Source: a virus. Taken from it: DNA of 64,000 nucleotides. The stretch spans positions 1 to 64,000 of the IMG/VR virus record IMGVR_UViG_3300028591_000123. One strand, 5' to 3'. Both the position numbers and the translations under genes were made by a program. Below, in pieces: positions 1-20,216 of the stretch (positions are counted from its first letter, which is position 1; every line of letters starts with the position of its first letter). The notes below the pieces were generated by a model, which worked only from the letters and a program-made list of their open reading frames with translations, did not search any database and was not told the origin of the DNA.

Positions 1-1
1 G

Positions 2-3958: not shown

Positions 3959-4123
3959 ATGGAAGAAAACATAGTTGACTTGTTGATTGCGAATAAATGT
4001 TATTGTCAAAAGAAAAATAAAGTGATATCATTGGAAGAATGTGATATTGATTGTCACAGGGAACAGTCATGCAGAAAAAAACATAATAGAGAATATGAGA
4101 GGTTTTTAAATGAAAGAAAATAA
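3959..4123 (+). CDS. small Cys-rich protein (54 aa, not in ORF track)
   Basis: Hand translation MEENIVDLLIANKCYCQKKNKVISLEECDIDCHREQSCRKKHNREYERFLNERK; TAAATG-coupled to the previous gene and fills the gap. Confidence 0.6.
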   Translation: MEENIVDLLIANKCYCQKKNKVISLEECDIDCHREQSCRKKHNREYERFLNERK

Positions 4124-4625: not shown

Positions 4626-5172
4626 TAAGGTTTGTGAATTTTGCATCTATTCTAAGAATAATAAGAAATGCAAACAAAAGAAGTTGAATCAAAAGGGAGA
4701 GTGTGAGTCATTTGTTTTTGTATTCGCATCTCCGCTTCCGTATTCAGTCATCAATGAATTATCTCAATTGGATTCCTTTTATGATGATGTTTCTAATCTT
4801 GTTGGAATGGTTTTTTCTGCTGCGATTGAAAAGACTTTCCTTTATGTTAAGTGTTCTCTCCTTGAAAGAACTATTGAGATTATAAATGTTTTTGAAGGGA
4901 AACAGAGCTATGGGGTTATTCCTGTTTCTTATTTTGTTTTTGGAGATGGGTCTCTTCAGTTTTCGGTTGATAAGGATTCTTTGAGGATGTTGAAAGCAAT
5001 TTTTGAAGATACAACAAGATTTGTTGTTGAATTTACTGATATTGTTGGTGAGGAAGATACTTTTTATATGGGTGAAGGTTTGGTTATTAATAATAGATTA
5101 TTTAGAAATTCTGATGTTCTTTTTTATTATAAGAAAGAGAAGAAAATATCTCCTGATTATCTTTCAATATAG
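4573..5172 (+). CDS. hypothetical protein with N-terminal CxxC motif (true start probably ~30-40 nt downstream)
   Basis: ORF track; VCEFC...C...C near the N-terminus. Confidence 0.6.
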   Translation: MEDQISSIIITMVMSVNDKVCEFCIYSKNNKKCKQKKLNQKGECESFVFVFASPLPYSVINELSQLDSFYDDVSNLVGMVFSAAIEKTFLYVKCSLLERTIEIINVFEGKQSYGVIPVSYFVFGDGSLQFSVDKDSLRMLKAIFEDTTRFVVEFTDIVGEEDTFYMGEGLVINNRLFRNSDVLFYYKKEKKISPDYLSI

Positions 5173-5190
5173 AAAGTTTTATATATAAGA
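5172..5190 (+). promoter_or_regulatory. archaeal promoter (BRE + TATA box)
   Basis: GAAAGTTTTATATATAAG matches the methanogen-type purine-rich BRE + TTTATATA box in a true intergenic gap. Confidence 0.65.
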
Positions 5191-5209
5191 ATAAATATAC
5201 TATAATTAC

Positions 5210-5225
5210 ACCTATCTTAATAGGT
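5210..5225. promoter_or_regulatory. inverted repeat ACCTAT-N4-ATAGGT, candidate operator
   Basis: Exact 6-bp arms about 25-30 nt downstream of the TATA box, near the expected start site. Confidence 0.35.
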
Positions 5226-5247
5226 AAAAAAAAAGAGGATGTTATAA

Positions 5248-5481
5248 ATGAATTATGCGGAAAAAGATAAAAAAGAATATTTTGAAAATACCAAGAATTG
5301 TTTCTTACTTATTGGTGTAAGAAATAATAGACAAAACATTGTTGGAGTTTGTCTAACAGAAGAAGATTGCGAAGCTCTCATAGAAGAACTCGCTGACTCT
5401 GGAAAGATATTTGATTATACAATTCAACATAAAATTCCTTTCTATCAAAATGTCTTAGCTTCCAGTTATGCCTGGAGATGA
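5248..5481 (+). CDS. hypothetical protein
   Basis: 77-aa ORF after promoter and GAGGA RBS. Confidence 0.6.
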   Translation: MNYAEKDKKEYFENTKNCFLLIGVRNNRQNIVGVCLTEEDCEALIEELADSGKIFDYTIQHKIPFYQNVLASSYAWR

Positions 5482-6610
5482 TAATCTTATGAAGATTTGT
5501 GTATTTACAGACCAACACCTTGGATATAGACAATATTCACAAGAAGAGAGAGAACAGGATTTTTATGATGTATTTAATCAAGTTGTCCGAGCAATGGTCA
5601 AGGAGCAGCCTGATCTTATCATTAATGCCGGAGATATTTTTCATACAAAAAATCCATCTCCAAGGGCGATCAATCAATTCCAACAAGGATTGGACTTGAT
5701 TGACGTACCTGTTTTATCAATTATTGGAAACCACACAACCGCAAAGATCAGAAATTTTTTCCCTTCCGATAAGTTGTTTGATCTGTATTTTTTAGAAGAC
5801 AACCCATTTATATCACAAGATTTATTTATTGCGGGAGTTAATTACAGACCAATTCTCGAATTTAATGATTTGATTAACAAGATTAATGATCTGGCCGTTC
5901 AAGCTCAGGATTATAAAAAAAGAATTCTTGTTCTACACCAAGGCTTGGAAGATGATTTTCCATTTGGATTTGAAATTCCAAGAGGTGCGATAGATTATTC
6001 AAAATGGGATATTGTGATTGTCGGACATATTCATAATAGAATGTATAGAGTTGATCCATCAGGATGTCAAATATTATATCCTGGGAGTACAGCTCGTTCT
6101 TCAATCGCAGAAGCTCAGGATGAAGTTAAAAATGGGAAAGGATATTCCATAATTGATACGGATACAATGAAGATACATAATGTTTCTCTTCCAATGCCTC
6201 GGCGTTTCGTTTTCATAGAAGCGGATCAGGAAGACTTGGAAGATGAGATTCTTAAAATTAAAGATTCGTTGGATGGTGATTTGCTTTTCATTACAATGGC
6301 TGGAGAGAATTCTAATTATGGATTTGATCTCATTGATCAGTATAATTTGAAAGGTAAGTGTTTGAGAGTTGATTATAATTTTATTGATATTAATCCAATT
6401 ACAATACAGGAAGAGGTGATACAAACAGATGATGATGGTAATGCGATTATTCCATCAGCTGGTGAGATTTTATTTGAGACTGTTAAGGAAAAATATGATG
6501 AGGATACCGCCAATTATGCGGTAAGTTTGATGAATATATTTCAAGATGGAACACAGGAGGCTTTTGAAGAAGCGAAACTCTTGTCAGAAAAATTTATTGA
6601 AAATCAATAG
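5468..6610 (+). CDS. mre11: Mre11/SbcD-like metallophosphoesterase nuclease (likely start ATG 5489)
   Basis: Motifs TDQHLG, AGDIF, IGNH, VLHQ, VGHIH and YPGS. Confidence 0.88.
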   Translation: MPGDDNLMKICVFTDQHLGYRQYSQEEREQDFYDVFNQVVRAMVKEQPDLIINAGDIFHTKNPSPRAINQFQQGLDLIDVPVLSIIGNHTTAKIRNFFPSDKLFDLYFLEDNPFISQDLFIAGVNYRPILEFNDLINKINDLAVQAQDYKKRILVLHQGLEDDFPFGFEIPRGAIDYSKWDIVIVGHIHNRMYRVDPSGCQILYPGSTARSSIAEAQDEVKNGKGYSIIDTDTMKIHNVSLPMPRRFVFIEADQEDLEDEILKIKDSLDGDLLFITMAGENSNYGFDLIDQYNLKGKCLRVDYNFIDINPITIQEEVIQTDDDGNAIIPSAGEILFETVKEKYDEDTANYAVSLMNIFQDGTQEAFEEAKLLSEKFIENQ

Positions 6611-6645
6611 TTTTATATATTATGAAATCTAATATAAAATTGTAA
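6611..6645 (+). promoter_or_regulatory. TATA-containing promoter, conserved 35-nt class (copy 1)
   Basis: TTTTATATATTATGAAATCTAATATAAAATTGTAA; 29/35 identical by hand to 17561-17595. Confidence 0.6.
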
Positions 6646-6695
6646 CATAAGTTAATTCTTGTGTATTAAACCGTAAAATTTTAAGAAAATGTTAG

Positions 6696-7295
6696 GTGAT
6701 TAGCATGGTAGAAGAATTAATAAACCCAAATGTTAAAGGCAAACAAAGTGTAATGAATATTGATGTTGAAAGTCTTGGCGAAGCAGCTGACCAAAATATT
6801 ATGGCTTCCTCTTCCGATCAGGAGAAGGTCATTTTGGAAGAACCGGTTAGAGGCAGAGTCATTGGAATGGAATTGATTTTAAATAATCAATTGAGAGTTA
6901 ATGATAGTGATATTAACAAAAAATATTACCCTGTAAGATTAATGGTCTCAACCGAGTTTGAAGATCCTAAAACAGGTGACAAGGTTATATCCAGGGATGG
7001 ATTTGGTGGATTAAGATTTTATCCAGCATTTGATGAGTCAGGAAATGTTAAACTAAAAGAAAATGGTGAACCAGTCCTTGATCATTTCTGGTTTAATTCA
7101 TCCAGTTCCAAACAAGCATCAGGATTTTCCATATTATTTGGCAGAGCTCAAGACTTTGATTCAACCATATTATCTGCAAGCAAATTGTTTAAATTTTTAA
7201 ACTCAAACCCTAATTGTATGCTTTTAACTGAATACACAGCATTTCAGGGAGAGGATTTAAAACCAAAACAAGTCATCCAATCTTTTGTGGAATAG
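6696..7295 (+). CDS. hypothetical protein
   Basis: 199-aa ORF with AGGTGAT RBS-like sequence at the start. Confidence 0.7.
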   Translation: MISMVEELINPNVKGKQSVMNIDVESLGEAADQNIMASSSDQEKVILEEPVRGRVIGMELILNNQLRVNDSDINKKYYPVRLMVSTEFEDPKTGDKVISRDGFGGLRFYPAFDESGNVKLKENGEPVLDHFWFNSSSSKQASGFSILFGRAQDFDSTILSASKLFKFLNSNPNCMLLTEYTAFQGEDLKPKQVIQSFVE

Positions 7296-7297
7296 AT

Positions 7298-7420
7298 ATA
7301 ATCTATGGGATTATATCAAACGGAAAAATAATTTATAAAAGTGACAATTTAGATGAGGTTTATGATTATTATAAGACTCTTAATCCTCATAATACTTTTA
7401 TATGTGAGATAGAAGTGTGA
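7298..7420 (+). CDS. possible 40-aa protein lacking a canonical start codon
   Basis: IIYGIISNGKIIYKSDNLDEVYDYYKTLNPHNTFICEIEV fills the gap; its TGA overlaps the next GTG (GTGA coupling). Confidence 0.35.
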   Translation: MIYGIISNGKIIYKSDNLDEVYDYYKTLNPHNTFICEIEV

Positions 7421-7977
7421 TTATGAATTTTATAATAAGTTCTTCAGATGTTCGTGAGGAGGAGATATGGAGGGAAAGTGTTTCTTCCGTATTTCCTCCT
7501 TTTTTTTTAAAAGAAGTTGATATAAATGGAGACGACAGAATCGATATCATTTTTGGAGACGTTATTAAAGGAATACAATCAAGTAAATCCGGAGACGCAG
7601 AAACAAGAGATAGAATTTTTCAAATCAAAGAACTTTTACGAGGTGGATGTACACTTGCTTTACTGCAAATCAACAAAGATGTATTATATGAAGAATCAGA
7701 CAAGATTCGGAAGGAACTTCTTAGGTTATTCTCCAAGGATGATTATTGGTTTGAAATTCGGAGCTGTTGCTTACAAGCATTCGGAGTGAATACAACAGCT
7801 TTTAGACATTTTATCATAATTTATAAAAAAAGCCTGACTCATCAGGTAATTTTTACGTCTCCACGGGGATTAACATTTCAGGTTAATCAGGAACGAGATA
7901 CCAATAATAATGTCAATATAAATAAATCATTATTGGTTTTTTTGTTAAATCATATTAAGGAAAAGATATTATGCTAA
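7417..7977 (+). CDS. hypothetical protein
   Basis: 186-aa ORF. Confidence 0.65.
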   Translation: MIMNFIISSSDVREEEIWRESVSSVFPPFFLKEVDINGDDRIDIIFGDVIKGIQSSKSGDAETRDRIFQIKELLRGGCTLALLQINKDVLYEESDKIRKELLRLFSKDDYWFEIRSCCLQAFGVNTTAFRHFIIIYKKSLTHQVIFTSPRGLTFQVNQERDTNNNVNINKSLLVFLLNHIKEKILC

Positions 7978-9086
7978 GTGATGCTATTAGTGAATTTTTA
8001 GGCTTGTATTTACAAAGCACTTCAGATTATTTTGTTGAAGTCGTAGGTATCAAAGCATTTGATAATTGTGATCACAATGAAGTTAAATTATATTTGCAAC
8101 AATTCAGTCCGCATTATAAGCAGCTTTTAAAAGATCTGGCTTACAATATAATAGAAGAAAACGGAGCAAGTGTATTTGTCAATATCGATCAAAATATTGA
8201 TGACTTTTTATCACAGTATGTGAATGATGATGTGAGTTTTACTTCATATTTGGCGGATTTTGATTTTGATTATAAAAAAAGACTTCGAGATAACTTAATT
8301 AATCCAATTTTAGATGCCAAAATACTTAATGAGATTGAATTTATAGCCCAGGATAATCTTGTTACAGAATGTATTAATAATACATTAGTTACAGGAATAG
8401 ATGGTTTTGATTTTAAAAATTGTTTGAATCAATTCAGTTCTGATTATAGAAACATATTAAAAGAATTAGCGCTTCATATTGTCAATCAAATATCCGATGA
8501 TGTTGATGAGTATATTGAAGATTTTCTCGAAAAAGATCAAATCAGCGTATCTTTGAGAGAATTAACATTAAAAAGCGCTTTGGAATATGATGTGGACGCG
8601 AAATCAGTTAGTGATGATGATTCTTCAATTTTTTATTCAGCAACCATGGATGCAAGCATTCAGGATATAGTTATTAATTCAAATACTCTTGAAGATACTT
8701 TTTTAGGCTTGATTGATGATACGGATGAGATTCTTATCAAGGATGGCGATCAAATTGCGCTTGATATTAAATTATCAAATGCGTTAGGTCATGGGCTTTC
8801 TAATAAGGTTATTTATTTGTATTTAAGAGATGCCAAAGGTGATTATGTTTGGAAGGATGAAAATGGAAATGCAATTAAAGCGGCTTTGATTACAGATGAT
8901 AAGGGAGTGGCTCATTTCTTATATGATTCTTTACCAACTGAGGCGGATAAACAAAAAGATGCTGAAGATTTAATCGATTATTTATTAAGAAAATGTTACT
9001 TGTACCATCTTTGTATTGAATATCCAGGTTTATTGAATGAATATAATTCAACACAAATGGAATGCAAGATTTATATAGAATACTAA
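7971..9086 (+). CDS. hypothetical protein with internal duplication and C-terminal Ig-like segment
   Basis: LQQFSPHYKQLLKDLAYNII vs LNQFSSDYRNILKELALHIV; C-terminal IKLSNALGHGLSNKVIYL...TDDKGVAHF resembles Big_1-type domains. Confidence 0.6.
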   Translation: MLSDAISEFLGLYLQSTSDYFVEVVGIKAFDNCDHNEVKLYLQQFSPHYKQLLKDLAYNIIEENGASVFVNIDQNIDDFLSQYVNDDVSFTSYLADFDFDYKKRLRDNLINPILDAKILNEIEFIAQDNLVTECINNTLVTGIDGFDFKNCLNQFSSDYRNILKELALHIVNQISDDVDEYIEDFLEKDQISVSLRELTLKSALEYDVDAKSVSDDDSSIFYSATMDASIQDIVINSNTLEDTFLGLIDDTDEILIKDGDQIALDIKLSNALGHGLSNKVIYLYLRDAKGDYVWKDENGNAIKAALITDDKGVAHFLYDSLPTEADKQKDAEDLIDYLLRKCYLYHLCIEYPGLLNEYNSTQMECKIYIEY

Positions 9087-9461
9087 GTGATTGAAATGTT
9101 GTATGGACAATATAAAAATGTTTTAAAACAAGACGCATATAGAATAGAATCTCCAACCACAGATTTATCTTATATTATTTACACAATCCCAGACAAAAAT
9201 TTGGACGGGATATCATGTGGGAATATAGCGGATAAGGTTTTTGAAAACATCGCCACGGAATTGGGTAAATATAAAAACAGCAATATTGGTGTTGTTGTGG
9301 TTGATTTTGGGGGGGTCACTCATATTGGTACAGCGTTTTTACGGAAATATATCAAATATTGTTTAACTGTCAAACCAAAAATTTTAAACATTAATATGTC
9401 AGCAAATGTTGAATTAATATATTCTCAATGTATTCAGGAATATATTAATGCTATTAATTAA
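9087..9461 (+). CDS. STAS-like (DUF4325-like) domain protein
   Basis: VVVVDFGGVTHIGTAFLRKY resembles the STAS signature VxxDxSGVxFIDS. Confidence 0.55.
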   Translation: MIEMLYGQYKNVLKQDAYRIESPTTDLSYIIYTIPDKNLDGISCGNIADKVFENIATELGKYKNSNIGVVVVDFGGVTHIGTAFLRKYIKYCLTVKPKILNINMSANVELIYSQCIQEYINAIN

Positions 9462-9474
9462 TCTTTATTAAAAC

Positions 9475-9558
9475 AATAACTTAATTTATATATGAGCAAA
9501 TGTTTAAACACCTCATATATGTAAGTTATTAAATATTAAATGTAAAGTAACATTTGCT
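9475..9558. repeat. nested inverted repeats in an intergenic region (hairpin-forming, contains TATA box)
   Basis: AATAACTTA-attt-ATATATGAG (9475-9496) pairs with CTCATATAT-g-TAAGTTATT (9512-9530); AGCAAATGTT (9495-9504) pairs with AACATTTGCT (9549-9558). Confidence 0.7.
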
Positions 9559-9817
9559 TGTCTTTTTTTTTGGAGGTGTTAATATATTAGATGACGATAC
9601 ATTATCAGAATATGCTCAACAGATGCGTATATTAAATGAAGAGGTTTTACCGGCTTTCATAGCTCTTTTACAATCCAAAGGCATACATGAGAAGATCAGC
9701 ACAATCTTTTTCTTGGTTTTTGTTAGAGAGCAGATGAAGGCGATGCATGATCAGAAATTTACAGAACTTTGTTATGCATTATTCACTAATGATATGGAGT
9801 TGGGGAGAGATGGCTAA
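9554..9817 (+). CDS. hypothetical protein (true start probably downstream of GGAGGT at ~9572)
   Basis: ORF track; RBS lies inside the called 5' end. Confidence 0.55.
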   Translation: MLVFFFGGVNILDDDTLSEYAQQMRILNEEVLPAFIALLQSKGIHEKISTIFFLVFVREQMKAMHDQKFTELCYALFTNDMELGRDG

Positions 9818-10481
9818 TAATTTTGATCTTATCCCTTTGCAGAAAAAGTATAGTGAATTGACAAGAAAAGAGAAACAGATTTTTGCATCATGCTATCCTT
9901 ATTTTATTAAAAAATCTCTTTTTGGAGATGAGTTAAGTAAGACTCAGACACAAAACCATGTTCCTCCAGTCTCATCAATTTCAACAATTCAGCAGGTTAG
10001 AGAGTTTCCTGAGGAAGCGGAAAAGGAAGGTGTTTCTTTAATGCAGGATGATAGTTTCATTAGTTTAAATGATGAACCAACATCTCTTTTGAGAATAGCT
10101 CTTAATGATTTGCCTGAGGATTCCATGCGTGCTGCCTTGGAATTATCAAAGGTATATTTTGAACCTGTTGAAGTTTTAAAGCAAATATATGCGATTGAAG
10201 CGACAAGAGTTAATGAAGGGATTAAATATGAACAGGAATTAGGTTTAGGTTTGAATCAAGACACTCAGGCTGCAATAAATAGTCTGGTTAATATTGCTAA
10301 AACAATTAATAATATCCAAGAAGGTCAGAAATTATCTGTTAACTTTTCTAACAATTTAGCTAATATGATAACAGAGATGGATTTGAATGATGACTCCGAA
10401 GACTATGATGAGGCGGATATTATTGATGCGGAATATGTGAATGTGGAATCTTTTAAATTAGAAGATAAAGATGACGATTAA
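9810..10481 (+). CDS. hypothetical protein with acidic C-terminus
   Basis: ATG 9810 after GGGGAGAG, overlapping the previous stop. Confidence 0.65.
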   Translation: MANNFDLIPLQKKYSELTRKEKQIFASCYPYFIKKSLFGDELSKTQTQNHVPPVSSISTIQQVREFPEEAEKEGVSLMQDDSFISLNDEPTSLLRIALNDLPEDSMRAALELSKVYFEPVEVLKQIYAIEATRVNEGIKYEQELGLGLNQDTQAAINSLVNIAKTINNIQEGQKLSVNFSNNLANMITEMDLNDDSEDYDEADIIDAEYVNVESFKLEDKDDD

Positions 10482-10492
10482 GAGGTGTTAAT

Positions 10493-10753
10493 ATGGATAT
10501 AGATGAAGAGTTTAATGATCCTAATACAAATTTTCTTATTCTTATGAAAGAGCTTGAACAGAGAATCAAGACTTTACAGAATGATTTACAGGTTATTCAA
10601 GATCCAGAACTGAGGGGTTTTGCGAATAAATTATATCGGAAATTAAAAGTAGAATATTTTTATTTGTTGAAATCCGATTTGGAATTAGCAAAAATGTTTG
10701 AATCAGAAAATACAAACAAAGAAGAAGATGAGTTTATACCATTTGAGGGATAG
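10493..10753 (+). CDS. small coiled-coil protein
   Basis: GAGGTG RBS; heptad-like LMKELEQRIKTLQNDLQVI. Confidence 0.6.
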   Translation: MDIDEEFNDPNTNFLILMKELEQRIKTLQNDLQVIQDPELRGFANKLYRKLKVEYFYLLKSDLELAKMFESENTNKEEDEFIPFEG

Positions 10754-10754
10754 T

Positions 10755-11648
10755 ATGATTAATCTTCATGTGCATACAATGTATTCTCTTCAGGATTCTG
10801 TTATTAAACCTAATGATTTAGCTGCTCTTTTAAAAAAATATAAACAGGACGCATGCGCAATCACAGATCATGGCAGCATATCAGGTTGGTATGATTTTAA
10901 CAAAGCATGTCTTGATCAAGACATAAAGCCAATTTTTGGCAATGAGTTTTATTGCGTAGATAGCTATAACGATGACAATAAGACCCGCAGAGATCATTTA
11001 GTTTTATTAGCGATGAATCAGGAAGGATTGCATAATATTAGAACATTACAGAAAATATCTGTTGAACATTTTTATTACAGACCAATCTTATCTTATGAAG
11101 TATTAAAAGAACATACCTCAGGAATATATTGTACTTCAGCGTGCTCTTTGAGTTCTATATCAAAAAATATATTGAATAATAATTTCAAAGAAGCTGAACA
11201 GTATGCGGAATTTTTTGATGAGATATTCGATGGCAATTTTTCTTTGGAATTGCAATTTCATCCTAATTATGCAGACCAGGATATAATTAACAATTCATTA
11301 ATTCAAATCGCAGATGGATATGGTATTCCATTATCTGTTTCATCTGATGCTCATTTCTTAGATGAGAATCAAAGGTACTTAAGAAGAGCTGTCCAGGCTA
11401 TTTCTTGGCACAAAAGTTTTGAAGATGTCGATGAATCTTTGAAAAGCAATTGCTTAGGCAATGATGATTTGATTCTTAAATTTGCCAAAGAAACATCTTT
11501 TGATTTGGATATTGTGAAAAAAGCCTTACACCAAACTGAACGAATCTCTCAAAAATGCAACGCTCAATTGGAAGGAGCTTATCCCAAAATTCCTGTATTC
11601 AACAAACATGATAAATTAGATGAATTATTTGAACAAGTCAGGTGGTAA
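10755..11648 (+). CDS. stand-alone PHP domain of family C DNA polymerase (DnaE N-terminal part)
   Basis: LHVHTMYSLQDS, AITDHG, IFGNEFY, DHLVLLAMN, TSAC and SSDAHF metal-ligand motifs; ends YPKIPVF, the normal PHP-to-palm linker. Confidence 0.88.
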   Translation: MINLHVHTMYSLQDSVIKPNDLAALLKKYKQDACAITDHGSISGWYDFNKACLDQDIKPIFGNEFYCVDSYNDDNKTRRDHLVLLAMNQEGLHNIRTLQKISVEHFYYRPILSYEVLKEHTSGIYCTSACSLSSISKNILNNNFKEAEQYAEFFDEIFDGNFSLELQFHPNYADQDIINNSLIQIADGYGIPLSVSSDAHFLDENQRYLRRAVQAISWHKSFEDVDESLKSNCLGNDDLILKFAKETSFDLDIVKKALHQTERISQKCNAQLEGAYPKIPVFNKHDKLDELFEQVRW

Positions 11649-11649
11649 C

Positions 11650-14079
11650 TTGGATAATCGAGAATACTTAAGAAACAAAGCCTATGATGGCCTGAGACGA
11701 AGAGGCTGTATTCAATCTTCTAATTATGACAAAGACAAGGATTACATTCAGAGATTAGAAGATGAATTAAATATTATTAATAAATTTGGATTTGCAGATT
11801 TCATCCTTGATGTTTCATATATTTGTCTGTTATGCAAGTCAAAAAACATTTTGATAGGACCAGGAAGAGGCTCTGTCGGAGGCTCTTTGGTTGCTTATGC
11901 GATGGGAATCACAAATATTGATCCCTTGAAGTTTGATTTGAGTTTTGCAAGATTTCTGAACCCAGGTAGGTCATCATCCTTACCGGATATTGATATTGAT
12001 GTGGGTACAAAACAAAGGCAAGAAGTTATTCAATTGATGAAACAAGAATTTGGTGAGGATTCAACATATCAATTTATTAATATTATAAAATTCACAGAAA
12101 AGACAGCTTTAAAGGATTTGGCCAGAATTTTTAATGTTCCTTTTGATATTATAAACAGAATCACATCAAAAATGAATTCTCAAAATGATCGAGAGGTTCA
12201 AGATTTTTTAAACAAATATCCGCAGATCAAACAAATGTATCCATACTTAATTGATTTGAATCGTTCTTATGGAGTTCATGCTGGTGGAATAATTTTAGCT
12301 CCTGATTCAATAGATAATTACGCTTCTCTTGTTAAGGTCAATGGATTGGATGTCATTGGGTATGATAAAAGGGTTTTGGAAGATAATTTATTTTTAAAAC
12401 AAGACCTACTTGGTTTGAAGACATTATCAATTATCCAAGATACATTTGAATTAATCGGAGTCGAGGATTTTGAAGACTTTGATTATGATTTAGATGATCA
12501 AAAAGTATATGAAACAATCAATACAAGCACATTAGGAATCTTCCAACTTGAAGGAATGGGCGCAGCAGAATATACTTACAAGCTCAAACCAGATAACTTT
12601 GACATGATAGTCGCTGATCTGGCACTTGTAAGACCAGGAGCTATGGATTCCGGGGATGCCGACACCTTTTTAAGAGTCAAAGACGGATTGGAAGAAGTAA
12701 GTTATGACCATCCATCCTTACAACCTATCTTATCATCAACAATGGGTTGTATCATCTATCAGGAGCAAGCCATGCAAATCGCCAAGTCACTTGCAGGATT
12801 TACAGATTCCGAAGCGGATATTCTTAGAAAAGGAATAGGAAAAAAACTTGATTACATTTTTGAAGAATATAAGCCAAAGTTCATCCAAGGTTGTTTAGAC
12901 AACAATATTGATCAAGAAACAGCTGAAATAATTTGGAATAAAATTGAAAAAAGTTCTTCATATTCCTTTAATAAATCTCATAGTGTAGGGTATTCAATGA
13001 TTACTTATCAGACAGCTTATTTGAAAACATATTATCCTATCGAATTTTATCTGGCTTTATTAAATAATACAGATGATGAGGAAAAAAGAACAAAAATATA
13101 TAATGAGATGAAAACAATTGATAAAAACATCAAGAACCCTGACATTAACATTAGCAAAGAGGTGATGGTTAATCGAGATAATGATGTTTATTTGTCATTT
13201 TCATTAATCAAGGGTATTGGAGAAAAGGCGATCAAGTCAATCATAGATGAACAGCCGTATCTTTCTTTTGATGATTTCATGAATCGAAAAGATTCCCGTA
13301 AGGTTAATAGAAGAGTAGTTGAAGCTTTGGTTGAAAGCGGCTGCTTTGATTCTTTTAATACAAACAGAGCCCTCTTAATGGCGACTGTGAACGGCGAACA
13401 GTATGTTCCATGGTCGGAGGAAGAGAGATTGTTTAGAGAATATAATAGATTAAAAATAAATCCAAAAGGAGATTTATTATCCTTTTATGATATATCAAAT
13501 TATAATATTACTCCAACTTCAATATCATCCTTGAAGAAAATAACAGAAGACCAAATTATTTACATAAAAGTGATGATAACTGGATTTAAATCAAAGGACA
13601 ATTACGGATTCTTAACAGTTAGTGACAACCAAGATTCCCTCAGCATATACTGCTCTCAAAAAAATATTGACAAATACATAACATTAATGAAAACAACAGG
13701 ATCCCCCGTCATTATTAAATTAAGAGTAAGAAATGGAAAAGCCACATTCATTAATATGCTGAATCTGAAAGACACATCTCAATACCGCAAGGAAGAATCT
13801 CTCTTGGATGGAACAATTTTCCAGCAATTACATCATTATAAACAAAAATATAACAACATTAATGTTGGAATCGCTGTGAATACAAACTTTTTCATGTCAA
13901 AAAAGGGCAATGACTGCGTTCGTTTTGACATACTTCAGAACGAAAAAGATGTATTAACAGGCAGAATGTGTGTTAATAATTATCCAGAAAACCTTGAGGA
14001 AGGATCAATAATAATGTATTTTGTAGCTGATTCAGAAGATATGTCAAATCCTTTCACAAATATTTACGGATGTGTATAA
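11650..14079 (+). CDS. dnaE: DNA polymerase III alpha (family C) catalytic core with C-terminal OB fold(s)
   Basis: GPGRGSVGGSLVAY, FARFLNPGR, PDIDID, HAGG, DLLGLKTL, GIFQLE, YSFNKSHS and AYLKTYYP motifs; TTG 11650 preceded by AGGTGGT. Confidence 0.93.
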   Translation: MDNREYLRNKAYDGLRRRGCIQSSNYDKDKDYIQRLEDELNIINKFGFADFILDVSYICLLCKSKNILIGPGRGSVGGSLVAYAMGITNIDPLKFDLSFARFLNPGRSSSLPDIDIDVGTKQRQEVIQLMKQEFGEDSTYQFINIIKFTEKTALKDLARIFNVPFDIINRITSKMNSQNDREVQDFLNKYPQIKQMYPYLIDLNRSYGVHAGGIILAPDSIDNYASLVKVNGLDVIGYDKRVLEDNLFLKQDLLGLKTLSIIQDTFELIGVEDFEDFDYDLDDQKVYETINTSTLGIFQLEGMGAAEYTYKLKPDNFDMIVADLALVRPGAMDSGDADTFLRVKDGLEEVSYDHPSLQPILSSTMGCIIYQEQAMQIAKSLAGFTDSEADILRKGIGKKLDYIFEEYKPKFIQGCLDNNIDQETAEIIWNKIEKSSSYSFNKSHSVGYSMITYQTAYLKTYYPIEFYLALLNNTDDEEKRTKIYNEMKTIDKNIKNPDINISKEVMVNRDNDVYLSFSLIKGIGEKAIKSIIDEQPYLSFDDFMNRKDSRKVNRRVVEALVESGCFDSFNTNRALLMATVNGEQYVPWSEEERLFREYNRLKINPKGDLLSFYDISNYNITPTSISSLKKITEDQIIYIKVMITGFKSKDNYGFLTVSDNQDSLSIYCSQKNIDKYITLMKTTGSPVIIKLRVRNGKATFINMLNLKDTSQYRKEESLLDGTIFQQLHHYKQKYNNINVGIAVNTNFFMSKKGNDCVRFDILQNEKDVLTGRMCVNNYPENLEEGSIIMYFVADSEDMSNPFTNIYGCV

Positions 14080-14562
14080 ATGTTTTCAACAAAATGTCGC
14101 ACATGCGCGTTGGCGCATAATTGTCATTTTTGGTTTCGAGACAGGAAGGAATCAGAAGAATGCAGATATTATGTTTTCAAACAAGATTCCTGTCCTTTCA
14201 GTAGAGATGTTGATGGAGAGGTTTTTTGCGTAGCCAAAGAAGATGTTGATAGTGTTGATAGCCATTGTACTGAATTGGTTTTCCAGAACTGCAATATGTT
14301 GGAGAATAATATCATCACTAGGAAGCTGCAGCAACATATTAAAGATTTGAAAGTGGACAACATCATATCAGTTGGGAAGAATCATCATCAAATACTCATT
14401 TATTTCACCAATGGACTGGTCTTAAGAATCATTGGAGATCCTTCTTATGATGATATGTCAGAAATCGGCAGCCTTTCAACTATCTTATATTATGATGACA
14501 ATGAAATAGATATAATGGAGGAAGTTTATGATGAGACGAGGAGGTTGTTAAAAAATGGCTAA
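14080..14562 (+). CDS. Cys-rich hypothetical protein
   Basis: CRTC...C...C...C...C in the N-terminal half; TAAATG-coupled to dnaE. Confidence 0.6.
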   Translation: MFSTKCRTCALAHNCHFWFRDRKESEECRYYVFKQDSCPFSRDVDGEVFCVAKEDVDSVDSHCTELVFQNCNMLENNIITRKLQQHIKDLKVDNIISVGKNHHQILIYFTNGLVLRIIGDPSYDDMSEIGSLSTILYYDDNEIDIMEEVYDETRRLLKNG

Positions 14563-14959
14563 ATACGAATGGAGGAGACTTTGCAAGTGGTTGAAGAATT
14601 ATTATCGTTTTGAATATAAGGAACTCGACGAATCATATAAAAATAATATGATTGAATATGTAATCCTTCATAATAAAGACATTATCACCGCTCAGGAAGT
14701 TGTTGATTTCGATGCCTGTTCTCAATGTGGATACTGTTGCAGGACAATGCATTGTCCTGATTTTGATGAGAATACTAACTTATGCACATCACATGATGAA
14801 CAAAGATGGGTAATATGTCAAACAGCTCCTTTTGGAGACCCAGATTTTGGTTTGTTATTGAATCTGGGAATTAATTGCACGTATTTGACGGCATTTTTAG
14901 TTGATTATTTAAATAAGGTTTTTGATAAGGCTATGGAGATGAAGAGTAATGAAAGTTGA
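14555..14959 (+). CDS. CxxCxxCC (YkgJ-family) Zn/Fe-S-binding protein
   Basis: CSQCGYCC...C...LCTSH...IC..APF matches the YkgJ pattern. Confidence 0.7.
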   Translation: MAKYEWRRLCKWLKNYYRFEYKELDESYKNNMIEYVILHNKDIITAQEVVDFDACSQCGYCCRTMHCPDFDENTNLCTSHDEQRWVICQTAPFGDPDFGLLLNLGINCTYLTAFLVDYLNKVFDKAMEMKSNES

Positions 14960-15620
14960 TGTTGATGTTCGAGAACAAAATATGGTTCAGAAATCATTAA
15001 TCTTTTTTAAGAAGCAGAAGATTATTGCGGATAAAAAAATGAATGAAGATGGCGACCTGGTATTTCATCTTCAGGATGGTCATGAATTATATATTGAAAG
15101 GAAGACATATTGTGATTTCCTATCAAGTTATATTAGTGGACATCTGCAGGAACAATGTATTAGGATGAATCAAAAAGAATTTTTCGCCGTAATAGTATAT
15201 GGGAATATACATCAATGTAGAAACATTCCAACTTTAAAACATATCAATCAAAATTCTGTTCAGAAGATGGTTGGAAACATAATGTTAATGTATAAAACAC
15301 CTGTTTTCTTTGTCGATAATGAAATTTCCTACCTTAGATTATCACTTCTTTTAGCTCAATCAGTTGAGAAGAATTATAAAAAATCTTTGGATTCTACAAA
15401 AATATCCGCAAGAGTGAAATCACGTCCTGATCTTAGCATGCTGATGGCTCAACCAGCTATAGGTCAGAAGAAAGCTGAAATGCTTCTTGATAATTTCGGA
15501 AGTGTTAAAAATGTATTATACGCTGACCGAGAAGAATTATTAAAAATCAAAGGCGTTGGAAAAAGCATGGTGGCGAATATCAAAGAATTGAAAGAAATTT
15601 ATGAAAATGGAATGAGATGA
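14949..15620 (+). CDS. short XPF/ERCC4 structure-specific endonuclease with HhH2
   Basis: VDVRE, GDL, IERKTYCDFLSSYISGHLQEQ; C-terminal IGQKKAEMLL and GVGKSMVANI helix-hairpin-helix motifs. Confidence 0.88.
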   Translation: MKVDVDVREQNMVQKSLIFFKKQKIIADKKMNEDGDLVFHLQDGHELYIERKTYCDFLSSYISGHLQEQCIRMNQKEFFAVIVYGNIHQCRNIPTLKHINQNSVQKMVGNIMLMYKTPVFFVDNEISYLRLSLLLAQSVEKNYKKSLDSTKISARVKSRPDLSMLMAQPAIGQKKAEMLLDNFGSVKNVLYADREELLKIKGVGKSMVANIKELKEIYENGMR

Positions 15621-15624
15621 TCAA

Positions 15625-15900
15625 ATGGCTCAAAGAAAATTCAGACCAAGAAAGAGACTCCCCAAGGAAGAGTTAATTGATTATTTAAAAAAAGGATATA
15701 CTCTTCAAGAGATAGCCGATCACTATGGCGTTGCTGTATCATATGTCTCCGAATACTTAAAAATGTTAAAAATTGATTTAAGAACATTCAAGGGGAGAGA
15801 TGCGAAAATGAAAGCCCGCAAAAAACAGAACGCCAAAAACAAAACATTTATTTCCGAATTTTATAAATTAATTGAAGGAGAAGTCACAAATGCAAGATGA
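15625..15900 (+). CDS. small basic HTH DNA-binding protein
   Basis: GYTLQEIADHYGVAVSYVSEYLK is a typical HTH. Confidence 0.75.
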   Translation: MAQRKFRPRKRLPKEELIDYLKKGYTLQEIADHYGVAVSYVSEYLKMLKIDLRTFKGRDAKMKARKKQNAKNKTFISEFYKLIEGEVTNAR

Positions 15901-16495
15901 ATCAATTGAATTACTGACAATATTAAATAATATATCAACAAGTATTTTTGAAACAAAAAAATCCAATCGATCAAGAATTAAAAATCAGCGTTTTTCAGAT
16001 GTTCATGTAAGAAACTTTCTTTACGATAATGTGATCAACCAACTCAATATCCCTTTGAGTTTTCTCACAAAAGAAATTGAAAGAGTTTTAAATCTTATTC
16101 CTATTTACACTCAATTTCTAAAACATGTCGAAGGTTTAACTATATATGATGCAGCATCATTGATATGTCTCATTAAAGATATTGAGAGATTTCCAAAATT
16201 TAATAATTTGTTAGCCTATACGGGTTTTGTTCCTAAAAGTCGCAGAAATTATAATAAAAGAATCCATAATCTTCTTTTAAAGATTTCATACGATTTATCT
16301 CAAAAAAATGTTTTATATATGTTTGTCTATGAACAGGCTTATGAGGATTTATTAGAAAAACATCCTCAGAGAACTAAGGAACATATTCACAATATGGCTA
16401 AGAGAGTTGTTGTGAAACAATTCCTGAAAGAGTTGTATTTCAATTGGAAACGTTTAAACAAGAAAGAAGAATTAGGAGATTTTTATGTTTATTAA
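15890..16495 (+). CDS. stand-alone IS110-Tnp/Nop-domain protein (TasA-like), no RuvC/DEDD domain
   Basis: Coiled-coil N-terminus, then PIYTQFLKHVEGLTIYDAASLICLIKDIERFPKFNNLLAYTGFVP and HIHNMAKRVVVKQFLKELYFNW, matching the Transposase_20/Nop pattern; only 201 aa. Confidence 0.7.
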   Translation: MQDESIELLTILNNISTSIFETKKSNRSRIKNQRFSDVHVRNFLYDNVINQLNIPLSFLTKEIERVLNLIPIYTQFLKHVEGLTIYDAASLICLIKDIERFPKFNNLLAYTGFVPKSRRNYNKRIHNLLLKISYDLSQKNVLYMFVYEQAYEDLLEKHPQRTKEHIHNMAKRVVVKQFLKELYFNWKRLNKKEELGDFYVY

Positions 16496-16808
16496 AACCT
16501 TTTATCATATGTTGAAGGATTATGATGATATTTATATGATAGATAAAAATCAAATACGCAGACCCAAGCTTGAAAAGATGAGCACAATAACGCGTGTCTT
16601 GGATAATAAGAAAATGGATAATTTGTTTGCGTTAGAACCAAGCGAAATGTATTTTTTAGAAGTTGATACTTTGGATGGTTATAATCCTAATGAATTTCTT
16701 AGGCTGGGGTTACTCCCAGATGTTTACAAGGAAGAAGATAAATATTTTATATCTTTATTTAATCAGAGCGTTAATATAGTTTATTTGACACAGGAGACAT
16801 TACAATGA
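16485..16808 (+). CDS. hypothetical protein
   Basis: 107-aa ORF, AGGAGA RBS, overlaps both neighbours. Confidence 0.6.
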   Translation: MFIKTFYHMLKDYDDIYMIDKNQIRRPKLEKMSTITRVLDNKKMDNLFALEPSEMYFLEVDTLDGYNPNEFLRLGLLPDVYKEEDKYFISLFNQSVNIVYLTQETLQ

Positions 16809-17275
16809 TTTTAGGAAAACAGGAATTGCAAAAAAGATACGGCGAAACTTATGATGAAGACATGTTTACATCAAACGGGATTGACTATCGTTTACATGAT
16901 GTACAGGTTATCGATGATGAGTCACACCTAACAGGAATAGTTGATAATAGGAAAAAACTCCCTCAGGTGAAACAATGCATCCCAGATGCTGCTATTTTCT
17001 ATTTTAAAAAAGGACATTATTATTTGTGGGATCTGGGTTATCATGAATTATTAGATGATTGCATTACATTATTTTATATAAGATCCACCCTTATGAGGGG
17101 AGGAGGGCAAATAATATCATCCGTGGGAGATAAAGGTTTTCATGGACATATTATTGTTGGTTTCCAATGCATGAATGATATGGTTATCTCTAAATATGAA
17201 AGAGTTGTCCAGGCTGTTTTCTATAAAACAGATGATGATGGAGTCTTATATGATGGTGATTATAATGAAGATTAA
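16805..17275 (+). CDS. dut: trimeric dUTPase / dCTP deaminase family protein
   Basis: GIDYRL, IRSTLMRGG, GDKGFHG and ERVVQAVF motifs. Confidence 0.8.
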   Translation: MILGKQELQKRYGETYDEDMFTSNGIDYRLHDVQVIDDESHLTGIVDNRKKLPQVKQCIPDAAIFYFKKGHYYLWDLGYHELLDDCITLFYIRSTLMRGGGQIISSVGDKGFHGHIIVGFQCMNDMVISKYERVVQAVFYKTDDDGVLYDGDYNED

Positions 17276-17555
17276 AGTTCCTCAATTTGATGAACTTAAA
17301 CCTAAGGAAGAACTAAAGGAAAGAAATAATGTTCAGAATTTTAGAGACTTTGATATAACAGATTATTATTTACCATCAGGGTGTTTCAATGATTGTTATG
17401 ATTTAGCTCAGGAGATTTGTGAAGATCTTGATTGTCGATTAAAGTCAATGGTTATGAAGGATGGTGTTTTATCCATTGAGTTATATCCGGAGGATATTCC
17501 ACCAGAGTTTAAAGTGACAAAATTTTTCAATGTAATTTGTTTTAAACTTCCATAA
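17265..17555 (+). CDS. hypothetical protein
   Basis: ATG 17265 after GGTGAT RBS, overlapping the dut stop. Confidence 0.6.
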   Translation: MKIKVPQFDELKPKEELKERNNVQNFRDFDITDYYLPSGCFNDCYDLAQEICEDLDCRLKSMVMKDGVLSIELYPEDIPPEFKVTKFFNVICFKLP

Positions 17556-17560
17556 TTAAA

Positions 17561-17595
17561 TTTTAAATATTATGAAATTTAAAATATTTTTGTAA
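17561..17595 (+). promoter_or_regulatory. TATA-containing promoter, conserved 35-nt class (copy 2), upstream of nrdD
   Basis: TTTTAAATATTATGAAATTTAAAATATTTTTGTAA; matches 6611-6645. Confidence 0.6.
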
Positions 17596-17642
17596 AAATT
17601 ATCTAAATAATACTAAAATTTATTGATATATGAGGTATTTTT

Positions 17643-19673
17643 ATGCAAGTAGTAAATAAATATAGTGAAATTTCAGAATATAAACCAAAACGTATTGTGC
17701 AAAAAATCATGTTAGAAATCCCCGACTTTGACAAGGCTGAAGCGGAGAAAATTCAAAACAATATCACATACTTATTGAAGAATCAATATGGCCCAGATGA
17801 TGTTGTCTCAACATCCGTAATTCGATCCCTAATTACACAACAATTAATACACAAAGGTTATATCGAAGAAGAAAAGAAGACAAGAAAACTCGGAATGTCC
17901 GTTTCAGACTTTGAAGATTTACTTGAAAATGGGAATAGGGATAACGCCAATATCTTCTATTCTCCTGAAATGATAACCAAATATGCGGCCGATAGATCAA
18001 TGAAAGAATATGCTTTATTAAGTATGCCGAAAATTTGTTCCGAAGCTTATGAACAAGGATATATACACTTACATGACTTAGAATATTGGAACACTCGCCC
18101 AAATTGTGCTAACTGGTCAATTCCTTTTATTGCCCGTAATGGTATGAAATTTGATGATAATGGTGAATATGGAAGCACAACAAACCCCGCCAAAAGTTTG
18201 GAAGTCTTATTAAATCATATGCTGGAGTTCATGATGGCGGGAGCATTATTCCTTAGTGGTGGCCAGTCATTCAGCAGCTTCAATGTTTATCTGGCCCCTT
18301 ATGCGAAGGGCAGAACCTATAAGGAAATCAAACAAGCAATGCAGAACTATTGGTTCAACAGCAATTGCGCTTTAATAGCAAGGGGCGGCCAAACAATCTT
18401 CAGTAGTGTCAATCTTGAATTTGGTGTTCCTGAATTTTTAAAAAACGAACCCGCCGTAGCTCCAGGAGGAGTAATTCAAGGTGTTTACGGAGATTACGAA
18501 GAAGAAGCTCATCTAATATTCAGAGCTATAATAGAAGTCTTAAAAGAAAAAGATGCCAATGGAAGATACCACACATTCCCGAATAACATTTTCATGATTA
18601 GAGAAGGAACTCTCGACGAATACAATGAAGAAGTTAAAATGGTTCATGAGTTATTAGCTGAAAATCCGACTATCTATTTCTCTAATGTAAACGATAAATA
18701 TACAGAGAACGCTGTGACAATGGGCTGCAGAACACGTATGCCTCAGACATTCACCGGTGATTATGCAAAAGATTGTCTGAATGTTGGAAATTTCCATTAC
18801 ACAACAATCAATCTTCCATTAATAGCATTAGAGAGCAGCAATCTTGAAGAGTTTTATGAAAAATTAGGATATTATATGGATGTAAGCAAAACAGCCTTAA
18901 TGGATAGAAAAGCAAATATTGAAGACATATTATACACTAAACACATGTCAGACTTCCTTCTTCAGAAAGATAAGATCACAGGTGAACAATTATATGATAT
19001 CGAAAGATGTTCATTCAGCATAGGCTTATGTGGTTTAAATGAATGTGTTCTTGAATTATCAGGAGAAGACATTATTGATGGTGTGGATCTTGGAGAAGAT
19101 ATTGTTAAATATATGACTAATAGATTAAATGAATATAAAGAGGCTGATGGTTTAAGATGGAGTTTATTCTTTAGTCCGGCCGAATCAACAGCTCATAGAT
19201 TTGCCGAAATCAATATGAAAAAACATCCTGATACAGCATGCGTCCAGGGCGTTAAGGGCAGTTACTATTTAACAAACAGCAGCCACATCGATGTCAACAG
19301 CGAAGCTGATCTGGTTGAACATATTAAGAATGCTGATGTATTTCATAAGTATGCGGTTGCAGGAAACATCTGCCATTTATGGCTGGGTGAGGCATATCCT
19401 GATCCTGAGGCTCTCTACTCTTTGAATAAAAAAATAGCTAAAACAAATATTAAATTCTGGGCGTTCACCAATGATTACACATACTGCAGGAATTGTCATA
19501 CAACAATTCAATTAAATCTCCTGGGAGAAACCTGTCCAAGATGTGGCAGCGATGACCTGTTGGTTATGTCCCGTATTACTGGTTATTATCAACCTGTAGC
19601 ATCTAAGAATGGAGGAGGTTTCAACAATGGTAAACTACAGGAATTCAAAGATAGATATAGGCATAAATTATAA
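17643..19673 (+). CDS. nrdD: anaerobic (class III) ribonucleoside-triphosphate reductase with N-terminal ATP-cone-like region
   Basis: IHLHDL, PNC, TMGCRT, PAESTAHRF, CRNC/CPRC Zn site and glycyl-radical loop RITGYY. Confidence 0.95.
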   Translation: MQVVNKYSEISEYKPKRIVQKIMLEIPDFDKAEAEKIQNNITYLLKNQYGPDDVVSTSVIRSLITQQLIHKGYIEEEKKTRKLGMSVSDFEDLLENGNRDNANIFYSPEMITKYAADRSMKEYALLSMPKICSEAYEQGYIHLHDLEYWNTRPNCANWSIPFIARNGMKFDDNGEYGSTTNPAKSLEVLLNHMLEFMMAGALFLSGGQSFSSFNVYLAPYAKGRTYKEIKQAMQNYWFNSNCALIARGGQTIFSSVNLEFGVPEFLKNEPAVAPGGVIQGVYGDYEEEAHLIFRAIIEVLKEKDANGRYHTFPNNIFMIREGTLDEYNEEVKMVHELLAENPTIYFSNVNDKYTENAVTMGCRTRMPQTFTGDYAKDCLNVGNFHYTTINLPLIALESSNLEEFYEKLGYYMDVSKTALMDRKANIEDILYTKHMSDFLLQKDKITGEQLYDIERCSFSIGLCGLNECVLELSGEDIIDGVDLGEDIVKYMTNRLNEYKEADGLRWSLFFSPAESTAHRFAEINMKKHPDTACVQGVKGSYYLTNSSHIDVNSEADLVEHIKNADVFHKYAVAGNICHLWLGEAYPDPEALYSLNKKIAKTNIKFWAFTNDYTYCRNCHTTIQLNLLGETCPRCGSDDLLVMSRITGYYQPVASKNGGGFNNGKLQEFKDRYRHKL

Positions 19674-19679
19674 AAAAAG

Positions 19680-19705
19680 AATAATATGATGTACATCATA
19701 TTATT
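19680..19705. terminator. 26-bp perfect palindrome at the convergence of the two gene blocks (bidirectional terminator or protein-binding site)
   Basis: AATAATATGATGT|ACATCATATTATT, next to an A-tract at 19672-19678 (T-tract on - strand). Confidence 0.5.
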
Positions 19706-19752
19706 ATAAAATTATTTTTAATAATATATTATTAATTATATTGAATCTATGA

Positions 19753-19914
19753 TTAATAATATTCATCTTTTTCTTTTTCAATATATTTTAATGGAGTGAT
19801 GCATTCATTAAATTTAACATTTAATTCGCATCTTTCATCCCCATCCAATACGCAATCAACACATTGCTTTGCATATATAAGGATGAACTCATTATCTTTA
19901 CTGCTTCTTTTCAT
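19753..19914 (-). CDS. small hypothetical protein (53 aa, not in ORF track)
   Basis: Hand translation MKRSSKDNEFILIYAKQCVDCVLDGDERCELNVKFNECITPLKYIEKEKDEYY. Confidence 0.55.
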   Translation of the reverse strand: MKRSSKDNEFILIYAKQCVDCVLDGDERCELNVKFNECITPLKYIEKEKDEYY

Positions 19915-19919
19915 AATTA

Positions 19920-20216
19920 TCAATGAAACATATTGTCTTGTTCTTCTTCTTTTTGCTCAAATAATATATCATTTAAATAACACATTTCAATGGATGATAT
20001 GCATTCCTTATTCAGAATGCATATTTTTTCCATTCCATCTGTTGTGGTGGATACAATATTTAGATAATTATCTGTTTCATAAACAATAAAGGATAGTGGG
20101 TAGATTTCTCCTGTTTTTAAAAATATATTTACAGGGATTTCTTCAATATCTTTACATTTATCTAATTGTTGTTTAACAGCATATAATAAATTATCTGATA
20201 ATGTATCGTGAATAAT
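19920..20216 (-). CDS. 98-aa protein with probable non-canonical ATT start (not in ORF track)
   Basis: Open frame IIHDTLSDNLL...VNIFLKTGEIYPLSFIVYETDNYLNIV...KICILNKECISSIEMCYL...FH fills the gap exactly; GGAGAG lies just upstream. Confidence 0.55.
   Translation of the reverse strand: MIHDTLSDNLLYAVKQQLDKCKDIEEIPVNIFLKTGEIYPLSFIVYETDNYLNIVSTTTDGMEKICILNKECISSIEMCYLNDILFEQKEEEQDNMFH

Follow-up and report, generated by a model that had tools for sequence, protein, structure and literature searches.

A predicted two-gene DnaE-type replicase, with separate PHP and polymerase-core subunits, in a probable rumen virus of methanogens

The first 64 kb of IMG/VR virus record IMGVR_UViG_3300028591_000123, a linear sequence of 114,461 bp with a CheckV completeness of 76%, carry two adjacent genes for a DNA polymerase of family C. 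This 64,000-nucleotide stretch is referred to here as the window. The upstream gene (10755–11648, + strand) encodes a PHP protein of 297 residues, the predicted 3′–5′ proofreading exonuclease subunit, and the downstream gene (11650–14079, + strand) encodes a polymerase core of 809 residues. Both lie in a tightly packed + strand block of replication and nucleotide-metabolism genes that spans ~0.4 to 20 kb of the window. The best explanation as a whole for the observed gene structure, domain content, conservation and phylogeny is a heterodimeric DnaE-type replicase assembled from the products of two genes in a methanogen virus; we put its probability at about 0.85.

The PHP gene begins at ATG 10755, two bases after the stop of the upstream open reading frame (ORF) at 10753, and ends with TAA at 11646–11648. 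Its product matches Pfam PHP (PF02811) at 3.5e-36 and is close in length to its homologues (298–312 residues). The core gene is in the +1 frame relative to PHP. As a sequence-only reading of this DNA had proposed, the core has its own translation signals: a Shine–Dalgarno-like AGGTGGT (11640–11646, + strand, read from the sequence) is embedded in the last PHP codons 3 nucleotides before the TTG start at 11650. The final T of this element is the first base of the PHP stop, which is followed by a single base (C 11649) and then the TTG (junction sequence, AGGTGGTAAcTTG). Gene callers choose an alternative in-frame ATG at 11620, which would overlap the PHP gene by 29 nucleotides, lacks a Shine–Dalgarno sequence and would add ten residues not present in homologues. 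We favour TTG 11650 because of the homologue N-termini and because those first 10 residues are disordered in the structural model (predicted local distance difference test score (pLDDT) of 39).

By alignment, the break falls at approximately residues 282–286 of Escherichia coli α, in the PHP–palm linker, and the core aligns to residues 284–902. The linker was correctly identified in the sequence-only reading, which also placed the break exactly after YPKIPVF; the PHP protein in fact continues for 15 residues past this motif. In the 1190-position polymerase profile phrog_405, the PHP protein matches positions 39–339 and the core positions 335–1090, and because these matches adjoin, the two proteins represent contiguous halves of one polymerase. 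Pfam finds no intein or Hint family in either protein, which agrees with the earlier statement that the junction lacks an intein, and the PHP tail and core N-terminus are ordinary linker sequence. PHP and polymerase are thus encoded by two genes in different frames rather than in the single polypeptide typical of DnaE.

The core is composed of palm, thumb, fingers, (HhH)2, OB fold and a second C-terminal β domain, with Pfam matches to DNA_pol3_alpha (PF07733; 6.5e-63), the fingers (PF17657; 1.4e-44) and HHH_6 (PF14579; 1.6e-21). The palm catalytic residues D123, D125 and D262 (numbered from ATG 11620) align with E. coli D401, D403 and D555, and this triad is invariant in 22 homologues. The core was modelled with AlphaFold2 (mean pLDDT 85.3; predicted template modelling score 0.74), and the model contains a β-barrel at 645–715, after the HhH module, and OB-fold proteins are among its Foldseek hits. 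The best Foldseek matches are Mycobacterium tuberculosis DnaE1, Taq α and E. coli α (E 6e-42 to 1e-33, TMq 0.6–0.7). PolC structures match the model worse (E ~1e-17), and the PolC NCBIfam models score far lower. Because PolC models and structures score lower, the OB fold is C-terminal and Pfam finds no exonuclease (DnaQ) insert in the PHP protein, the enzyme is DnaE-type and not PolC-type, and the ‘PolC-family’ label first given to it is incorrect. All nine PHP metal ligands (HHDHEHCDH) are present in the alignment with Thermus aquaticus α and are invariant in nine PHP subunits across the viral clade described below, in line with the original impression that this site is intact. The pattern HHDHEH[C/H]DH is the motif used to call PHP ‘active’ in a recent survey (PMC12926913). 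The site looks active, and the PHP subunit is predicted to have 3′–5′ exonuclease activity.

Relatives were collected by a phmmer scan of 1.84 billion cluster representatives, which yielded 31,969 family C sequences, few of which align over their full length including the C-terminal domains. Trees built with FastTree (154 rows) and with IQ-TREE (40 rows; LG+C20 by posterior mean site frequencies, quick search) both contain a single 17-row clade that includes PhiF1, a virus of Methanothermobacter thermautotrophicus, with support of 99 (99 in the Shimodaira–Hasegawa-like approximate likelihood ratio test of IQ-TREE; 99 in FastTree). The nearest neighbours of the clade are Streptomyces phage Faust and one further sequence, in a phage-rich region of the tree apart from Salmonella DnaE. 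The description ‘bacterial-type replicase’ therefore holds for the polymerase family and requires revision for the lineage: the enzyme groups with bacteriophage DnaEs, not with cellular replicases, and is better called a phage-derived family C polymerase. One subclade of 10 rows is PHP-only (rumen viruses and P0142–P0144), and the other, of 7 rows, is PhiF1-like, with a PHP subunit that usually bears an N-terminal uracil-DNA glycosylase (UDG).

Within the clade, 14 of the 17 members are split, with a core lacking PHP, and three are fused. P0143 is a PHP–core fusion with the same ERCC4–DCD–NrdD synteny, P0145 is a UDG–PHP–core fusion, and P0225, in which PHP was found with a hidden Markov model built here, fits the UDG–PHP–core form at 1258 residues. 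P0143 and P0145 each nest next to split sisters; P0225 has no firm position in the trees. The 40-row tree requires a minimum of four changes between split and fused states. With its root not fixed, the simplest reading would be a single early fission and then three re-fusions. The split is the prevailing state in this lineage and is probably ancestral. We propose that the gene was passed down within a viral lineage common to PhiF1, and that the polymerase of this lineage would have come from bacteriophage-type DnaEs.

Outside the clade the split is rare. A single-protein scan of IMG/VR gave no close relatives, and an alignment scan gave only DnaEs at 31–37% identity; among the 80 best IMG/VR DnaE loci, 76 are fused, three are cut by a contig end and one is split. 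The lone split locus (L005:637–1617 and 3396–6137, IMGVR_UViG_3300033149_006567) has ~1.8 kb of other ORFs between its parts and belongs to a DnaE lineage unrelated to the clade, with P0252 (871 residues, also without PHP) as its nearest row.

Two further features vary among the clade members. In the PhiF1-like subclade, the family-4 UDG–PHP gene can be adjacent to the core, separated from it by 1–4 ORFs (L096:161–1663, L097:1190–2641) or fused, as in the 1271-residue UDG–PHP–core protein at L091:4480–8295. An intein (Intein_splicing, LAGLIDADG_3) is also inserted close to the palm start in many clade cores, whose products are then ~1150–1230 residues long (P0064–P0066, P0078–P0105, L086:10001–13603, L003:2693–6223); the window core has none.

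Structure prediction suggests that the two proteins assemble. The complex of the PHP protein with core residues 11–600 received a score of 0.90, compared with 0.01 for the best of three controls; this value is reached by 58 of 80 solved complexes and by 2 of 110 mismatched pairs. The prediction runs have at least 97% of their contacts in common, and the partner pLDDT is 91. In the modelled interface, PHP tail residues 273–297 (...KIPVFNKHDKLDELFEQVRW) lie on core residues and helices 59–74. The prediction is consistent with reassembly of the subunits and does not prove it. We propose that PHP and core are translated as separate polypeptides, with the Shine–Dalgarno sequence in the last PHP codons coupling their translation and so favouring roughly equimolar synthesis. 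No intein family is found at the junction, and the parts must associate non-covalently; they would do so through the interface that unites PHP with the palm and thumb in single-chain α, the conserved acidic-hydrophobic PHP C-terminal tail docking onto the first palm helices. The 297-residue protein would then act as a metal-dependent 3′–5′ proofreading subunit, and the 809-residue core would provide the polymerase active site together with the DNA-binding (HhH)2 and OB folds.

Stand-alone PHP proteins exist, and the viral PHP protein might instead be an independent phosphoesterase or nuclease of repair or nucleotide metabolism that leaves the core without proofreading. The PhiF1-like group, where PHP is fused to a repair enzyme (UDG), and relative L097, where four ORFs (~1 kb) lie between the UDG–PHP and core genes, would suit such a role. 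We nevertheless consider it improbable: PHP and core genes co-occur in all neighbourhoods inspected, both the PHP C-terminal tail and the modelled core contact helices are conserved, and the nesting of fused forms among split ones points to one unchanged function. E. coli α also needs its PHP domain, which in the work behind structure 4JOM was reportedly required for stability of the protein.

The source is most likely a large tailed, myovirus-like virus of ruminant guts whose host is a pseudomurein-walled methanogen, Methanobrevibacter in the rumen. We regard an archaeal host as highly probable because six lines of evidence agree. First, the window encodes a protein with two pseudomurein-binding repeats (PMBR; 42058–43128, − strand; Pfam PMBR 3.5e-14, above the cut-off), which marks the host and does not belong to the polymerase. 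Second, the thymidylate synthase gene of the replication module (2935–3654, + strand) is of the methanogen type (NCBIfam TIGR03283 9.2e-36, versus 7e-5 for bacterial ThyA). Its DNA (window 2930–3580) is 63–74% identical over ~110–600 bases, among the matches listed, to many of 301 genomes sampled from the family (Methanobacteriaceae) of a Methanobrevibacter metagenome-assembled genome (MAG), and it looks like a host-derived auxiliary gene. Third, among 50,697 phage records, the sole match of the PMBR protein C-terminal half is ‘Caudoviricetes sp. vir080, host Methanobacteriales’ and the sole match of a transglutaminase-like baseplate protein is PhiF1. The remaining lines are the synteny of the replication module with that of PhiF1, isolated on Methanothermobacter; a PHP and core pair, 54% identical, inside a Methanobrevibacter MAG that carries mcrA (L105); and the presence of the sequence in sheep and bovine gut runs from 13 studies.

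Residues 166–354 of the PMBR protein match PDB entry 22oc_A, ‘P210 WT’ (193 residues), at 4.5e-63. The entry may represent the solved structure of a domain for lysis or cell-wall binding from a related methanogen virus; we found no paper on ‘P210’ with pseudomurein in the literature searched. A scan of the genome contigs for the anaerobic ribonucleotide reductase NrdD as a host clue gave no relative.

Several observations weigh against a two-gene replicase working in an archaeal cell. The complex score may reflect the model's memory of, or likeness to, solved single-chain α structures. The three fused clade members imply that the single-chain form also works in this lineage, so that the split may carry no special function. 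A sliding-clamp gene could sit in the missing part of the record, which is only 76% complete. With regard to the host, no CRISPR spacer match was found between window positions 1–20000 and the 301 Methanobacteriaceae-family genomes; that search returned similarity in the thyA and nrdD regions and a few 35–42-nucleotide matches at 88–91% identity, and none of the five of these that were inspected lies inside a repeat array. Finally, a related 71.5-kb contig (L106, CAVFGN010000005.1), whose PHP and core genes are 51% and 46% identical, respectively, to those of the window, is binned with a MAG labelled Alistipes finegoldii.

The last two points, together with the position of the polymerase clade among phage DnaEs, would be expected if the virus were a bacteriophage, for example of gut Bacteroidota or Bacillota, in which a family C polymerase would be unremarkable. 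We judge this improbable. The PMBR repeats score above a curated cut-off, the thymidylate synthase is of the methanogen type with DNA matching many Methanobacteriaceae genomes, PhiF1 and a Methanobacteriales virus are the only matches of the baseplate and PMBR proteins among the 50,697 phage records, and the module is syntenic with that of PhiF1. The bin to which a viral contig is assigned says little about its host, and an ordinary DnaE of its own is present in the Alistipes MAG; the contig is probably a mis-binned viral sequence. MAG membership, with one Methanobrevibacter and one Alistipes bin, gives an ambiguous host signal to which we attach little weight. The archaeal host named in the sequence-only reading is thus well supported by several independent pseudomurein-methanogen markers, with the Alistipes-binned contig as a discordant element, and the assignment continues to depend on sequence markers of this kind.

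The split itself is confirmed to be genuine and old, and is not an error. Logan contigs from four runs and four studies (bovine gut, gut and other metagenomes) each span 10700–12700, with 43–56 substitutions and no gaps. Counted in the respective frames, third codon positions take 26 of the 32 substitutions listed for PHP and 6 of the 8 listed for the core, and because the changes sit mostly on third positions, purifying selection appears to operate in each frame up to the junction. No PHP family is recorded for any of the 120 best core homologues (99% down to 44% identity), whose contigs reach 145 kb, and in total the core gene is without PHP in more than 120 relatives; the homologues' lengths are ~800 residues, or ~1150–1230 with an intein, and a 99%-identical core protein of 819 residues is recorded from another contig. 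A separate PHP gene (298–312 residues) is positioned directly upstream of the core in L002, L084, L085, L086, L095 and L105, with core identities to the window of 65% in L002, 52% in L085, 47% in L086, 44% in L084 and 38% in L095. Recurrence of the split over this deep divergence, with varied junctions, agrees with the initial view that it is real.

The junctions take several forms: TAA/GTG and TAG/TTG in phase 0, TAATG in phase −1 and, in the window, TAA-c-TTG in phase +1. In four relatives, a GAGGTG-type Shine–Dalgarno sequence (e.g. GAGGTGA) occupies the equivalent position within the last PHP codons. This pattern fits translational coupling of two cistrons and does not fit any single recoding mechanism. 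A programmed +1 frameshift or stop read-through at TGG-TAA, with AGGTGG as a prfB-like stimulator, would produce a fused α by linking ...EQVRW to NLDNREY, and the window has both a Shine–Dalgarno-like element adjoining the stop and a core in the +1 frame. In the prfB frameshift, the Shine–Dalgarno sequence lies 3 nucleotides upstream of the P-site codon, whereas here it overlaps the would-be P-site codon. No one rule would cover phases of 0, +1 and −1, other genes intervene between the two parts in L096 (one ORF between the UDG–PHP and core genes) and L097, and every relative has its own start codon at a proper Shine–Dalgarno distance, which makes recoding very unlikely. That the pair is really a single fused dnaE, interrupted by a frameshift error in sequencing or assembly, has a negligible probability, even though the ORFs lie one base apart with a +1 shift and fragmented PolIII α genes are often errors (Timinskas et al., PMC3919608), since four independent assemblies contain no indel, the 99%-identical core occurs on another contig, the close relatives are all split with differing junction phases and purifying selection tracks each frame to the junction.

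The clamp used by this enzyme was left as a question in the sequence-only reading, and the conservation pattern narrows it. Cellular DnaEs carry a Q-x-x-[LM]-F β-clamp motif (e.g. QADMF in Salmonella, QKELF, QVSIF and QIKLF) in a 35–45-residue linker between the HhH and OB domains. This entire segment is absent from all 17 clade members and from phage Faust. Viral family C enzymes have been described as diverging from cellular ones after the fingers and, with one exception, as lacking the β-interaction motif (PMC3201878). Pfam finds no τ-binding C-terminal domain (PF20914) in the core, which ends in the second β domain, and neither subunit has a PCNA-interacting peptide box, Qxx[LIMV]xx[FYW][FYWL], that is conserved across the clade. 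No PCNA_N or DNA_pol3_beta match was obtained at E ≤ 1 in the 114-kb, 76%-complete record, and the annotation of the complete PhiF1 genome includes no clamp, primase or helicase. The enzyme lacks a canonical β-clamp motif, and on this sequence evidence it is probably either clamp-independent or served by an unrecognised processivity partner.

Two sets of clamp candidates were discarded. A conserved ‘PF-x-x-I’ sequence in the last 12 residues of the core was rejected as a clamp peptide, as it is modelled as a strand of the terminal β domain with no free tail. Upstream ORFs of 371 and 244 residues were dropped as clamp candidates, having no family hit and sizes that are not conserved in relatives.

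Archaeal host cells contain PCNA, RFC, PolB and PolD, and no β clamp. A more speculative proposal, which we consider possible but unlikely, is that the archaeal cell houses a family C replisome, clamp-independent or PCNA-adapted, in which PHP serves as an exchangeable subunit for proofreading and repair. If so, this lineage would have converged on the α–ε logic of E. coli through detachment of its own PHP domain, the UDG of the PhiF1 branch would substitute for uracil sensing by archaeal PolB and PolD, and loss of the β motif would mark adaptation to a host without a β clamp. In other viral polymerases, UDG domains are proposed to act as processivity factors (PMC3201878).

The genes around the polymerase form a conserved module. 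At its head is an XPD/DinG-like superfamily 2 helicase (672–2492, + strand; Pfam Helicase_C_2, ResIII and DEAD, with weak NCBIfam DinG/Rad3 matches), and an Mre11-like phosphoesterase is encoded at 5468–6610. The polymerase is followed by a 134-residue Cys-rich protein (14555–14959, + strand) with a CxxCxxCC-like pattern (CSQCGYCC...C...C). Six relatives of the PHP-only subclade, one of which has a fused polymerase, encode this protein at the corresponding position (BLASTP 1e-16 to 1e-59). It has no Pfam or NCBIfam hit, is unmatched in the 50,697 phage records and could serve as an accessory factor. An ERCC4/HhH nuclease (14949–15620, + strand; Pfam ERCC4 2.6e-10) occupies the same position in PhiF1 and all relatives inspected. 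The Transposase_20-like protein at 15872–16495 (+ strand), which lacks a DEDD domain, shares its module position with PhiF1 (ORF53) and L095, and because of this common position it is a conserved module member and not an insertion sequence. NrdD is encoded at 17643–19673 (+ strand; Pfam NRDD 1.1e-132), and a dCTP deaminase-like protein is also among the replication genes. The replication module of L095 contains in addition a gene (L095:15457–16071) for a restriction endonuclease of the RE_MjaI family, named after a Methanocaldococcus enzyme.

Elsewhere in the record, an ORF with a Prim-Pol (archaeo-eukaryotic primase) domain is open at the 3′ end (record 113078–114460, + strand), and this ORF probably continues, alongside further replication genes, in the quarter of the genome that the record lacks. 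An RNA polymerase subunit A″-like domain (record 63853–64650, − strand; TIGR02389 7.6e-29, below the cut-off) lies in a 4125-residue open frame and reaches into the window at 63853–64000.

Family C polymerases are described as essentially confined to bacteria (PMC3919608) and, among viruses, as exclusive to bacteriophages (PMC4889955). The large and abundant rumen virus clade (contigs of 115–145 kb) and PhiF1 break this bacteriophage-only rule, and the clade very probably runs a phage-derived DnaE inside an archaeal cell. The two-subunit form offers a natural system for examining what PHP contributes to α (stability, proofreading or both), how a family C enzyme achieves processivity without a cognate clamp, and how replication modules are exchanged between bacterial and archaeal viruses. 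Viruses of rumen methanogens are also of practical interest.

The closest known system is Methanobacterium virus PhiF1 (MK994522, GenBank 2019), which like the window virus has PHP and core as separate genes. ORF58 is a UDG–PHP protein and ORF57 a PHP-less core with an intein-like insert (a weak Hint match near the palm start); both were annotated by the depositors as ‘putative DNA polymerase III DnaE superfamily protein’ under QGH-series protein accessions. The two viruses are of myovirus type, encode pseudomurein-directed lysis genes, belong to the same polymerase clade and have syntenic modules comprising ThyA, polymerase, nuclease, ERCC4, Transposase_20-like protein and NrdD. PhiF1 differs in the N-terminal family-4 UDG on its PHP subunit and the insert in its core, and the two cores are ~31% identical; its genome is 74 kb and its host thermophilic, compared with >114 kb and a rumen source here. 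We found no paper that discusses the PhiF1 polymerase or MK994522 (a 2023 methanogen-virus compendium lies outside the literature searched). The PHP/core layout is thus already public through PhiF1 and many metagenomic relatives, and is less novel than initially assumed: the present pair adds a member and detail, and no new principle.

Compared with solved bacterial enzymes that have an active PHP proofreader, the viral polymerase has the domain order of M. tuberculosis DnaE1 (7PU7/5LEW) and Taq α (2HPI), i.e. PHP, palm, thumb, fingers, (HhH)2 and OB, together with the same nine-residue PHP site and Asp triad (best structural match E 6e-42, TMq 0.68). Those enzymes differ in being single polypeptides with an internal Q-x-x-[LM]-F motif and a τ-binding C-terminal domain, and in working with β and a clamp loader. 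The phage DnaE-like proteins (Streptomyces phage Faust gp61; PHROG 405) are the nearest outgroup and are likewise virus-encoded and devoid of the β-motif segment, but nearly all are fused and their hosts are bacterial. Cyanobacterial dnaE also yields a family C polymerase from two genes, DnaE-n and DnaE-c (PMC3919608); there the protein is split elsewhere and healed by split-intein trans-splicing, whereas the window split has no intein. In the E. coli Pol III core, polymerase (α) and exonuclease (ε) are likewise separate polypeptides, with the difference that ε is a DEDD (DnaQ) exonuclease on an inactive PHP, whereas in the window the PHP itself is detached and looks active.

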